This document shows, in pieces, positions 1 to 60,518 of a DNA stretch of 64,000 bases. The notes below the pieces were generated by a model. It had not been told where the DNA came from and made no database searches. It saw nothing but the letters and a program-made list of their open reading frames with translations. The first letter of the stretch is position 1. Each line of letters opens with the position of its first letter. The DNA comes from Gammaproteobacteria bacterium (lineage in GTDB: Bacteria; Pseudomonadota; Gammaproteobacteria; JAUIAT01): NCBI GenBank assembly GCA_030425295.1, contig JAUIAT010000006.1:9487-73486 (forward strand), read 5' to 3'. A program made the translations under genes and the position numbers.

Positions 1-113
1 TGTTGCTTTTAATGTGATTCAGCTCTCAGCAAAGCAATTTCTTGACAAAAAAGCTTTTTTTGCATAAAGTATGCACAAAATATTCGTTAAAAACTATTAA
101 GCATAGGGCTTAC

Positions 114-646
114 ATGACTGAACCACACGAACATATAATTTACAACAATATAAGAGAATTAAAAAATACAATACAACCTACGGTTTTTTTTATTATGAAG
201 TTATAGGTCTTTCTTCAATAGGAACTCTTGAAAGAACTCTGGATCTAACGCAAGAAATTCTAGATAATGTTGTAGATAAACTTGAAAAATTAAGCCTTGA
301 TCCTTCCTATTCTCTAGAAAGCAACGAATTAGATAAAATTAAATGCTGGGGAATTCTTGCAGAAATTTATAAGCAAGAACCTACAAACAACGATGAAAAG
401 CATAGAAAATGCTCCCTTATGGGAATTTATTGCTATTTAAATGAATTAAATGAAAAAGGCATTAACATAAACCAACGATCAAGTGATACGAAGCATTTTC
501 AAGGATTAGTTCACAACTTACTAGCAGACGCGTCAGGTACCCTCCCTTCTCAGTCAACAGTCCTTTATACCATATTAAATAGTTTATCTGCTAATAAACA
601 AATAGACTACAAGAGTAAAAATATCCTTTCTTTTTGTTTTTTTTAA
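114..646 (+). pseudogene. Effector-like hypothetical ORF split by a frameshift. An ATG at 114 (frame 0) runs to a stop at 204-206. From 122, a stop-free frame runs to 646 (the 75-aa ORF 419..646 of the track). The two frames meet at a T8 tract at 184-191.
   Basis: Manual translation. With 9 T the two frames fuse into one ORF of about 177 aa (MTEPHEHIIYNNIRELKNTIQPTVFFYYEVIGLSSIG...). The frame 122-418 is open but has no ATG. Confidence 0.4.
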
Positions 647-746
647 AGAGTACTTTTTAAGCTCCAGCATAGAAACCTCTAAAAAATGCGAAAAATATAA
701 ACAGACAATTTTTGATAAAAATAAGCTAGGGTTAGCTAAGTTTTAT

Positions 747-2381
747 ATGCATCTATACAAAGAAAAACATTTGAAACATATAGATATTAGGTATATTTTT
801 AAATTACTTAAAGATGCCAGGGAGGAAGGCATAAGCAATGGAGAAGACACTCCGCCTTATTCTTATTTTTACGATTTATATCTTATAGCTAATAATTTAC
901 GTTTAAGTAGTTCTATTCAGGTTGAAAAAGATTTATTATTCAATATTCTAATAGCTAGCATACCAAAAAAAGTAAAACATAAAAAACATATAAATCCGCT
1001 TAATGATTTATCTATATTAATGTCTAGTGTAAGTAGCATTAATTCACTTACAAATGAAAATTTTAAACAACTTCGTGTGTTAAGTAATGGAATAAAAATA
1101 AGCCCAATAAATAAATTACGCTTATTAAGCTTTGAAAGAACCCAAATTAACCTATTGCACGAATACATGTCTTTGTTTAAGCCAAACAAAATTATAGCTG
1201 CAGTTATTGGTTTGTGTGCTGGGGCTGGGATTTTTGCATTAAATGTTTTCATTGGTGCATTGATTTCTATAGTATGGTTTACATTTATTAACGGCTTCAT
1301 TATGGGGCTCATGGGCTTAATTTTTTCACCACCAGTTAATCCTTTGGTAACTGCACTGATGTGTGGTTTGATCTTCATAACTTTCGGGGAAATTTTTGCG
1401 GGGGTTATCATTAGTATGGGATTTGGAGCTCTCTTAGCTTGGGGCTCAGTACATATTGCATATGATTTAGCAATTGGCTTACTAAATGGCATAACAAAAA
1501 ATTTGATACGTATAAATTCTCCGCTTACGGCACTAATTAAATCATCTAAATATTATGTAAAACCTGCTTTTAGTGAACCACTATCTGAGGTTCATGATGA
1601 TTCAAATAAATATCATCTAAGTCTTTTATTAGCCAATGGTAAAAAGTTGCATCTCTCAAATAATCTTACTCAAAATGTATTAGATGACTTAGAAAATAAG
1701 CATCTCAGACAGGAAGTAATTAGCAAAATAGTTAATAGACTTGGTAGATTAGATATACATCCTGAGAATAAAACTAAAATACTCTTAAAAACATTTATTG
1801 TAACTAATAAATTATATATTAGAAAGTTTATAAAGGTTTTAAAGCAAAATTTATCTTCAGATGAATTTTCTGCTGATCGCATCAATACTTACCTTGGATG
1901 GTCAATTGAATGCATAATACATTATCCATCCGCCGAAAAAGAACTGAATAAGTTAGCTATTATGTACTTAAAAAAGGTTATTGACACGGTCGATAGTCCA
2001 GCTTCCTTTATTTATGATAATTTAGAATCTTCAGAGTTAACCCATCTGTTATTTTTTCTTCAAGGCAACTTTACTCCTGAAGAAAACCTCACACAAGATA
2101 TTATGTTTCATGGAGATGAACCTATTATATTTGAAGATAATGGTTATGAATGGGCAAATGAAGGAGAAACAAGAACGGACATAATAGAATATATAAAAAA
2201 ATTCGAAGAAAAAATAAAGACAGGCAAAGAAGAAGCACGAAAAAAGATTTTAGAGTATTTAATTAAAAAAATACCTAATAAACCAGACTTAAAACAAAGC
2301 TCAACCAAACCAATAAATAATGAGACGACGCCTTTATTAGACGGTTATTCAGATAGAAATATGGTTTTAACTTATACTTAA
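747..2381 (+). CDS. Hypothetical membrane protein of 544 aa. Central bilobed Gly/Ala-rich hydrophobic region (residues ~150-245), hydrophilic termini, E/K-rich C-terminal region. Effector-like.
   Basis: Long ORF. GxxxG-rich hydrophobic hairpins (IIAAVIGLCAGAGIFALNVFIGALISIVWF... and MGLIFSPPVNPLVTALMCGLIFITFGEIFAGVII). No recognisable enzymatic motif. Confidence 0.55.
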   Translation: MHLYKEKHLKHIDIRYIFKLLKDAREEGISNGEDTPPYSYFYDLYLIANNLRLSSSIQVEKDLLFNILIASIPKKVKHKKHINPLNDLSILMSSVSSINSLTNENFKQLRVLSNGIKISPINKLRLLSFERTQINLLHEYMSLFKPNKIIAAVIGLCAGAGIFALNVFIGALISIVWFTFINGFIMGLMGLIFSPPVNPLVTALMCGLIFITFGEIFAGVIISMGFGALLAWGSVHIAYDLAIGLLNGITKNLIRINSPLTALIKSSKYYVKPAFSEPLSEVHDDSNKYHLSLLLANGKKLHLSNNLTQNVLDDLENKHLRQEVISKIVNRLGRLDIHPENKTKILLKTFIVTNKLYIRKFIKVLKQNLSSDEFSADRINTYLGWSIECIIHYPSAEKELNKLAIMYLKKVIDTVDSPASFIYDNLESSELTHLLFFLQGNFTPEENLTQDIMFHGDEPIIFEDNGYEWANEGETRTDIIEYIKKFEEKIKTGKEEARKKILEYLIKKIPNKPDLKQSSTKPINNETTPLLDGYSDRNMVLTYT

Positions 2382-2526
2382 CCCCTCACCCTACGTCATC
2401 TCGACTGAAGCACCAAAGGTGCGTAATGGAGAGATCTGACTGATGTGTGGATTCAGATCCCTCGACTACGCTCGGGATGACGGCTGTAGCGCTGGCATGA
2501 CAACTATGACGTTCGGGATTGTAGAG
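2382..2526. repeat. Degenerate copy or copies of the MITE-like family B palindromic element (CCTCGACTACGCTCGGGATGACG), located downstream of the stop of the 747-2381 gene and in the long intergenic region upstream of the glnII-like gene.
   Basis: 2458-2482 ccctcgactacgctcgggatgacgg matches the inverted repeat of the element at 40044-40148. Partial arms at 2394-2410 and 2508-2525 (acgttcgggattgtagag). Confidence 0.6.
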
Positions 2527-2829: not shown

Positions 2830-3894
2830 ATGACTCTAAGCCAAGCAACTTATATATGGCATGATGGCACTGAACCGACTCAAACTCTTCGCTCAAAAAC
2901 TAGAATCATCAAACACCCTGAAGGCGAAATAACAATTAATGATTTCCCTGAGTGGGGATATGACGGATCATCAACTAATCAGTCAATTGGTGAAGACTCT
3001 GATTTAGTTTTAGAGCCTGTTTCTTTTGTTAGCGATCCTGTCTTAAAGGGTGATAATTACTTGGTATTATGCGAAGTATTAAATCCAGATGGCACACCTC
3101 ATCCTACAAATAAAAGAGCTATTCTCAGAAACATTCTTGAGAATGGAGGTGCTGAGCATGAGCCATGGTTTGGATTTGAGCAGGAATATACACTTTTCAA
3201 AGGTTCGCAGCCACTAGGTTGGCCAGAGCGTGGCTATCCGGCACCTCAAGGTCCCTTTTATTGTGGCGTAGGTGCAGATGAAGTTTTTGGTCGTGATTTA
3301 GTTGAAGCTCATACACAAGCTTGCCTAGAGGCAGGACTTATGATCTTTGGCATTAATGCCGAAGTAATGCCTGGTCAATGGGAGTATCAAATTGGCTACA
3401 GAGGAATTGAAGGTGAATCAGCAGATGCACTAACTGTTTGCGATCATCTTTGGTTAGCGCGATGGCTATTATACCGCTTAGGTGAAGACTATGGCATTTC
3501 CGCAACTCTTGATCCAAAACCAGTTAAAGGTGATTGGAACGGTGCAGGCAAGCATACAAACTTTTCAACAAAAGATATGAGAGACCCTAAAATTGGTTTA
3601 AAGGCGATAGATGCTGCAATTAAAGTTCTAGGCGAGCGTCACTCTGACCACATAAAAGTTTACGGTCATGGCTTAGAAGAAAGACTTACAGGGAAACATG
3701 AAACTGCCCATATTAGCAACTTTAGCGCGGGTGTAAGTGATCGTGGAGCCTCAATACGCATTCCAAGAGCTGTTGCTAACAAAGGTTATGGGTACCTAGA
3801 AGATCGTAGGCCAGGAGCAAATGCTAATCCTTATGAAGTAGCTGCAATTCTTATACAAACTATATGCAATGTTAAAACCAAAATCACAACATAA
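2830..3894 (+). CDS. glnII: Glutamine synthetase type II (eukaryote-like GS catalytic domain).
   Basis: GPFYCGVGADEVFGRD and KPVKGDWNGAGKHTNFS closely match GSII/eukaryotic GS signatures (GPYYCGVGADKAFGRD; KPIPGNWNGAGCHTNFS). GAGGAA RBS 7 nt upstream. Confidence 0.85.
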   Translation: MTLSQATYIWHDGTEPTQTLRSKTRIIKHPEGEITINDFPEWGYDGSSTNQSIGEDSDLVLEPVSFVSDPVLKGDNYLVLCEVLNPDGTPHPTNKRAILRNILENGGAEHEPWFGFEQEYTLFKGSQPLGWPERGYPAPQGPFYCGVGADEVFGRDLVEAHTQACLEAGLMIFGINAEVMPGQWEYQIGYRGIEGESADALTVCDHLWLARWLLYRLGEDYGISATLDPKPVKGDWNGAGKHTNFSTKDMRDPKIGLKAIDAAIKVLGERHSDHIKVYGHGLEERLTGKHETAHISNFSAGVSDRGASIRIPRAVANKGYGYLEDRRPGANANPYEVAAILIQTICNVKTKITT

Positions 3895-60323: not shown

Positions 60324-60518
60324 ATGAAAAAAAAAGATAAAAAAATATCAAAAATAGATAACTCCTCATTAACCAAGGTATCAGGGGGCGCTTACATAAA
60401 AGGCGTTACAGATAAAGAGTACCTTGAATTACAAAAAAAGCTTCTAAATAGTAAAGAAATACTTAGTATGAATGAATTTGATAAGTTGACTAGTTGGGAA
60501 AAGGATCAGGAAAAGTAG
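60324..60518 (+). CDS. Small peptide (64 aa) with a double-glycine-type leader (MKKKDKKISKIDNSSLTKVSGG) and a 42-aa hydrophilic helical core.
   Basis: GGAGAA RBS 6 nt before the ATG at 60324. The leader end LTKVSGG resembles colicin V / class II bacteriocin leaders (ELDSVSGG). Confidence 0.4.
   Translation: MKKKDKKISKIDNSSLTKVSGGAYIKGVTDKEYLELQKKLLNSKEILSMNEFDKLTSWEKDQEK

Follow-up and report, generated by a model that had tools for sequence, protein, structure and literature searches.

Organization of the locus

At the beginning of the 64-kb stretch of DNA analyzed in this study (the window), an ATG at position 114 opens a reading frame that reaches a run of eight T residues (T8) and closes shortly afterward, a second frame overlaps the first at this run, and a third frame overlaps the second at another T8 (Table 1). 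The ATG with its AGGG motif, the first T8 and the stop codon behind it lie where a previous sequence-only reading of this DNA had placed them. That reading had also reported a stop-free frame at 122-646 with no ATG before 419, and the observation holds for GTG and TTG as well; the earliest of these three codons is at 419, so the first 99 codons of the frame have no start. Adding one T to the first tract joins the two frames into an ORF of 177 aa, the sequence of which is exactly the one quoted at the time. What had been missed is the second T8, the overlap with the open frame 606-2381 and the fact that this downstream frame is the frame of ATG 114.

Table 1. Features of the two-tract locus and its flanks (positions in the window)
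Feature	Position	Strand	Remarks
Sigma-70-like promoter, TTGACA - 17 nt - TAAAGT	42-70	+	10/12 matches; consensus match only; 44 nt upstream of ATG 114
Weak Shine-Dalgarno-like AGGG	105-108	+	5 nt before ATG 114; duplex energy -3.0 kcal/mol
Segment A, first 26 codons, MTEPHEHIIYNNIRELKNTIQPTVFF	114-191	+	ATG 114 frame; codon log-odds 0.16
T8 tract 1, first frame junction	184-191	+	ORF continues with one T more (or two fewer)
Premature TAG	204-206	+	Ends the ATG 114 product, 30 aa, MTEPHEHIIYNNIRELKNTIQPTVFFIMKL
Segment B, ~151 codons, YYEVIGLSS...NILSFCFF	191-643	+	Frame 122-646
T8 tract 2, second frame junction	637-644	+	Preceded by T5-G; needs one T fewer (or two more) to enter frame 606-2381
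Segment C1, 34 stop-free codons, KEYFLSSSIETSKKCEKYKQTIFDKNKLGLAKFY	645-746	+	No start codon of its own; frame of ATG 747
Segment C, 544-aa ORF	747-2381	+	Called as a gene in public data (P0001); codon score 0.17
Hydrophobic block, ~4 predicted transmembrane helices	1185-1523	+	Fused residues ~358-470; Kyte-Doolittle 19-residue windows >1.6
Palindromic repeat element	2394-2482	.	Just 3′ of the gene stop; possible transcript end; nested arms CGTCATCTCGA/TCGGGATGACG and GCGTAATGGAGAGATCTGA/TCAGATCCCTCGACTACGC

The promoter-like match upstream of ATG 114 is the only good one of the gene, and across the whole region such matches are no commoner than in shuffled sequence. The Shine-Dalgarno (SD)-like duplex at this ATG can be read against a median energy of -5.4 kcal/mol for conserved genes of the window (n=23). 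Read in the frame of ATG 114, tract 1 is GU_U UUU UUU, with an in-phase U_UUU_UUU heptamer at 185-191. At tract 2, where the frames 122-646 and 606-2381 overlap, the last T is also the first base of the stop TAA (644-646) that ends frame 122-646. A T9 at the first site together with a T7 (or T10) at the second would yield a single stop-free ORF at 114-2381 of 755 (or 756) codons, with the predicted junction peptides NTIQPTVFFYYEVIGLSSIGTLER at site 1 and NILSFCFFK / EYFLSSSIETSK at site 2.

An antisense ORF of 191 aa (917-1492, minus strand) lies opposite the transmembrane block. It has no family match and a codon score of 0.01, and it is probably spurious.

Probable continuity of the coding sequence across the two tracts

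Codon usage was scored as log-odds on a scale on which real genes of the window reach 0.21 ± 0.13 and wrong frames -0.30 ± 0.13. Segment A scores -0.34 and -0.04 in its other two frames. Segment B is clearly coding over 194-418 (0.28) and ambiguous over 419-643, where its score of -0.02 is nonetheless the best of the three frames. Once stops are counted in, each segment is positive only in its expected frame. We estimate that an open frame of 175 codons has a probability of P ~5e-6 at the base composition of the window (37% GC). Since the 64 kb contain just 12 A/T runs of at least 8 nt, the chance that one falls within the 85-nt first overlap is P ~0.016; for the second overlap (41 nt), which also holds a T8, it is P ~0.008, and for both overlaps each to hold one of the 12 runs the joint probability is P ~1.2e-4.

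These numbers bear on an account of the locus in which no fusion ever existed, the ORFs of 30, 75 and 544 aa are independent and their overlaps at T-runs are coincidental. Public gene calls do list the 75-aa and 544-aa ORFs separately. However, independent ORFs would leave 99 open, clearly coding codons before ATG 419 without any possible start, ATG 419 itself has no SD (-0.8 kcal/mol), and two T8 runs in two overlaps would have to coincide at a joint chance of ~1e-4. We regard this account as very improbable, and we are confident that the T8 at 184-191 interrupts a formerly continuous coding sequence.

The second junction probably joins the same gene, although it is less secure than the first because segment C1 is short and its codon score (0.04) is ambiguous. 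It is here that an arrangement of two genes with one frameshift has to be weighed, in which segments A and B form a 177-aa gene broken at the first T8 while the 544-aa ORF (747-2381) is separate and intact, and the second T8 would simply happen to lie before the stop of the 177-aa gene. Public gene calls place the start at ATG 747, which has a marginal SD-like energy of -3.8 kcal/mol, a spacer of 100 nt (647-746) is of normal intergenic length, and the codon score of C1 does not discriminate its frame from the other two (0.005 and -0.16), with an atypical GC content by codon position. Against this, C1 is free of stops for its whole length, or for 47 codons if counted from 606, whereas the other frames contain 4 and 6 stops (P ~0.015-0.05 by our estimate, at a local GC of 26%); the second T8 sits exactly within the 41-nt overlap; the nearest AGGG is 16 nt from ATG 747, too far to serve it; no promoter-like or terminator-like site was found in 600-746; and the downstream frame is that of ATG 114. 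Taken with these points, two separate genes are rather unlikely. The two shifts are of opposite sign and restore the original frame, which would happen by chance in about 1 in 2 cases. A pair of opposite sign is also what a designed two-switch gene would be expected to carry.

Thus the proposal that a T8 splits a decaying gene holds in its core, since the tract does break a continuous coding sequence and decay is the best reading, but the unit concerned is probably one of 755 aa that is broken twice rather than one of 177 aa.

Genomic change or sequencing error

Sequencing indel error had been offered as one possible cause of the split frame. The locus is also present in the Logan assembly of run ERR3428545, in which contig ERR3428545_530190 (2,861 nt) is 100% identical over positions 1-2445 of the window including both T8 tracts, and the same T8/T8 contig is recorded in 2 samples. 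Elsewhere in the window, 8 further A/T 8-mers fall within intact genes and are in frame, each of them an A8 when read on the sense strand; intragenic T8 runs on that strand are confined to the two junctions. Were two errors to strike at random among these 10 intragenic tracts, both would fall in the one gene with a chance of 1/45.

It could still be argued that the consensus is wrong at both sites and that the true genome has in-frame tracts (e.g., T9 and T7) and an intact gene. Homopolymers are classic sites of indel error, correcting two positions gives a flawless ORF across 755 codons, and the Logan assembly was probably built on the deposited assembly's own reads and is hence no independent sample. 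On the other hand, a k-mer assembly made straight from the reads reproduces both T8 exactly, and the 100% identity of contigs of 2.9 and 10.9 kb implies that the reads are accurate. The 8 in-frame 8-mers lie in conserved genes, and no other gene in the 64 kb looks frameshifted. Moreover, the corrections needed are opposite in sign, unlike a systematic under-call or over-call. Because the second assembly is identical at both tracts and the other 8-mers are in frame, error is an unlikely explanation and both frameshifts are probably real changes in the DNA.

The Logan contig extends 416 nt upstream of the start of the window (L001 1-416), where it contains a divergently oriented partial ORF of 75 aa that belongs to no family. 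An AT-rich spacer of ~300 nt precedes ATG 114 on this contig, consistent with a gene start near 114. The only 9-nt homopolymers of the window are A9 runs at 45318-45326 and 60327-60335, and both are intergenic.

Predicted protein and its distribution

The fused product is predicted to be a mostly helical membrane protein of ~755 aa, whose central hydrophobic block comprises about four transmembrane helices. A single-sequence AlphaFold (AF2) model shows long helices in the hydrophobic block at low confidence; with a mean pLDDT of 44 the model is unusable. A word-index search of 5.8e9 clusters returned nothing but the gene itself, and an exhaustive phmmer (HMMER) search of 1.84e9 representative proteins returned only its own 544-aa and 75-aa fragments. 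Pfam, NCBIfam and the PDB contain no family, domain or structure that matches the protein, tblastn against 80 loci found no homologue, and the 64-kb window holds no paralogue. No intact full-length orthologue was found in these searches, a result that is uninformative for pseudogene status given that the gene is an orphan. The absence of long-ORF homologues anywhere had been named beforehand as a ground for rejecting the fusion. That absence is literally what we found, but it leaves the fusion standing, since no part of the gene has a known relative and its lineage has been sampled only once.

The GC content of the gene is ~30%, compared with 36.9% for the window, and together with its orphan status this is best read as the mark of a dispensable gene of accessory character. 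The label "effector-like" that had been attached to it is a guess from orphan status, low GC and membrane hairpins. No similarity to known effector families or to eukaryote-like domains was found in Pfam, NCBIfam and the PDB or among the 1.84e9 proteins, the 64-kb window showed no secretion-system genes, and the C-terminus, read by eye, has no obvious E-block.

Host genome and neighborhood

Judging from a single gene, the host appears to be an AT-rich Legionellales-like (Legionella/Coxiella-like) bacterium. The best matches of its glutamine synthetase in a search of 185,579 species genomes are 72-74% identical and come from MAGs of uncultured Legionellaceae and Coxiellaceae, in which the gene order around the match is not shared with the window. 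At 90% identity none of the proteins checked clusters with any other sequence, and the lineage has been sampled once. The neighboring genes are intact and include type II glutamine synthetase, MarC, an MscS-family channel, a POT transporter, RdgC, aconitase, fumarase, the Suf operon and MutS. Apart from the two-tract locus, each pair of overlapping ORFs that was tested in the window consists of complete, separate genes, and the region shows no general decay.

Several further observations were made in this neighborhood. The glutamine synthetase gene (2830-3894, plus strand) encodes the type II, eukaryote-like enzyme, and its closest relatives (59-74% identity) are scattered among MAGs of Legionellaceae, Coxiellaceae, Bdellovibrionota, Rickettsiaceae, Chlamydiales, Marinimicrobia and others, a patchy distribution that suggests horizontal transfer. 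Copies related to the palindromic element behind the two-tract gene lie beside the suf operon at 40048-40070 (plus strand) and 40122-40144 (minus strand), and since Logan contigs break inside the element, it is probably multi-copy in the genome (MITE/REP-like). An ORF of 346 aa at 42227-43267 (plus strand) has sub-threshold matches to YopJ-family Ser/Thr acetyltransferase effectors (Pfam PF03421, E 9e-5, 22.6 bits against a cut-off of 24.4; NCBIfam XopJ, E 0.003), weak similarities that hint at a host-interacting lifestyle. Two adjacent orphan ORFs at 33121-33900 and 33908-34927 (both minus strand; 259 and 339 aa) are rich in Gly/Ala hydrophobic segments and match no family; they look like separate membrane-protein genes rather than a split gene, and their junction has no homopolymer. 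Two larger ORFs, at 13757-16537 and 18061-19977 (both minus strand; 926 and 638 aa), match no Pfam or NCBIfam family, and the sole hit is a faint resemblance to PcnB-like nucleotidyltransferases over residues 577-631 of the 926-aa ORF. Both may be additional lineage-specific genes, possibly of the effector type.

Comparison with slippage, recoding and phase-variable systems

The split at the first T8 had been linked to phase variation and transcriptional slippage. Both junction tracts are T8, the lower limit reported for slippage (PMC1088944, PMC6260861). Runs of this kind are typically selected against from 9 nt upward, with 8 nt productive in some species (PMC1088944), and E. coli RNA polymerase at a T8 gives ~10% reporter rescue by insertion and ~10% by deletion (PMC6260861).

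A close parallel is with the host-associated Buchnera aphidicola and Blochmannia, in which pseudogenes frameshifted at poly(A) tracts are adventitiously rescued by slippage of RNA polymerase (cited in PMC5009743 and PMC5574713). As in those bacteria, a one-base change in an A/T homopolymer within slippage range breaks an otherwise intact ORF in an AT-rich genome. The tracts described here are, however, shorter than the 9-10 nt or more for which rescue has been documented, two tracts of opposite sign both need correction, and the surrounding genome has an intact MutS and no sign of general decay. The programmed sites of Shigella flexneri mxiE (T9), IS elements and Thermus dnaX (A9) resemble the locus in that overlapping ORFs are joined at a sense-strand T/A run and the longer product needs an inserted mRNA nucleotide (PMC1088944, PMC5009743). 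Those sites are single, usually of 9 nt and conserved among relatives, whereas here there are two sites of 8 nt known from one lineage, and efficiency at 8 nt is low (~10% in the E. coli reporters; PMC6260861).

Ribosomal frameshift sites offer a second formal likeness. Site 1, with its in-phase U_UUU_UUU, resembles the -1 heptamers of the dnaX/IS type, and site 2, with a UUU_UAA that allows tRNA-Phe to re-pair at +1, resembles the +1 sites of the prfB type; frameshifting would be predicted to give the same products as the T9 and T7 alleles. Unlike such sites, the tracts have no downstream structure beyond that of shuffled sequences and no upstream SD-like stimulator.

Phase-variable contingency loci with intragenic homopolymer tracts occur in Campylobacter, Helicobacter, Haemophilus and Neisseria. 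Like them, the locus has a homopolymer soon after the start of a gene for a putative surface or membrane protein, which would here be in the OFF phase. It differs from them in that no tract-length polymorphism was found, the two tracts are out of phase, and eight T residues make a short tract for rapid switching in a cell proficient in mismatch repair.

A functional switch or recoding site would thus take the T8 pair to be contingency tracts, at which slippage during replication turns the gene on and off, or sites of programmed transcriptional slippage or ribosomal frameshifting; the ribosomal route would consist of a -1 shift on U_UUU_UUU at site 1 and a +1 shift on UUU_UAA at site 2. The gene would then yield three products, of 30, 177 and 755 aa, at ratios under regulation. 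Several features fit. Tract 1 lies 70 nt past the start codon, a typical phase-variable position, and forms an in-phase X_XXY_YYZ heptamer; tract 2 sets a slippery UUU right before the stop (641-646), which is formally RF2 (prfB)-like; the two tracts are the only sense-strand T8 inside genes of the window; and all segments are still open. Bacterial RNA polymerase also slips best on poly(T) (PMC6260861), and Shigella secretion-system genes use such slippage (PMC5009743).

The searches made for such a system point the other way. RNA folding around both tracts was no better than that of shuffles (z = 0.11, 0.90, -0.89, -1.42), which leaves no stimulatory hairpin or pseudoknot, Rfam has no match in the window, and no SD-like motif lies upstream of 637. 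An exact look-up of the T9/T8, T9/T7, T9/T10, T8/T7, T8/T10 and T6/T8 products among 15e9 public proteins found none of them, and when metagenome DNA was searched for tract-length variants with a variable-gap pattern, 0 matches emerged, in what is very thin sampling. In addition, full length would require two independent low-efficiency events (~1% jointly), and MutS is intact. Neither phase variation nor programmed slippage therefore found positive evidence here, and we consider a functional switch or recoding site improbable. Its most specific form, in which an opposite-phase pair of T8 is kept under selection and slippage in replication or by RNA polymerase sets the ratios of a 30-aa peptide, a 177-aa soluble N-domain and a 755-aa membrane protein, is more improbable still. 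We know of no established mechanism of homopolymer phase variation in Legionellales.

A young pseudogene as the preferred explanation

On balance, we favor the view that 114-2381 holds the remains of one lineage-specific gene that was recently broken at two T8 tracts, and that it is now a young pseudogene or a dispensable accessory gene. Site 1 would be one T short of the in-frame length and site 2 one T too long (or two too short). Translation of the sequence as it stands would end 30 codons after ATG 114, the middle 150 codons would be unreachable, and the final 544 codons could be made only by separate initiation at the poorly equipped ATG 747. It is because translation would halt at 30 codons, with the rest unreachable or poorly initiated, that a young pseudogene or relaxed selection is preferred. 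Slippage of RNA polymerase could still produce a small fraction of transcripts that combine U9 (site 1) with U7 (site 2), and hence some full protein; by analogy with E. coli (~10% per site) this would amount to ~1% jointly, and such a leak would be adventitious rather than programmed. The frame anatomy, the coding signal, the orphan status and the identity of the second assembly were observed directly; in this scheme we infer the genomic mutation, the non-functional state and the rate of slippage alike.

The age of the lesion can be bounded from the frame itself. Across the 755 codons there is no other lesion, neither a stop nor a further indel, a state that fits a very recent break and would also fit continued selection. 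On the assumption that the entire gene is neutral, it would have diverged by less than ~2.4% since it was inactivated.

Implications

The finding matters mainly for annotation: the public "genes" of 75 and 544 aa are probably fragments of one orphan gene of 755 aa, and they should be flagged as frameshifted. Were the two-tract switch nevertheless true, an intracellular bacterium of Legionellales-like type would possess a homopolymer contingency or recoding system, and to our knowledge none has been established in the order; should both tracts turn out to be conserved or variable in length, it would be the first two-site slippage switch in the group. Most likely no regulated switch is involved and the lesion is a fresh instance of a well-known, ordinary kind. 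As a young pseudogene, the locus would illustrate that in Legionellales-like genomes accessory genes of low GC are the first to be lost at A/T homopolymers, whereas the 8-mers of housekeeping genes stay in frame.
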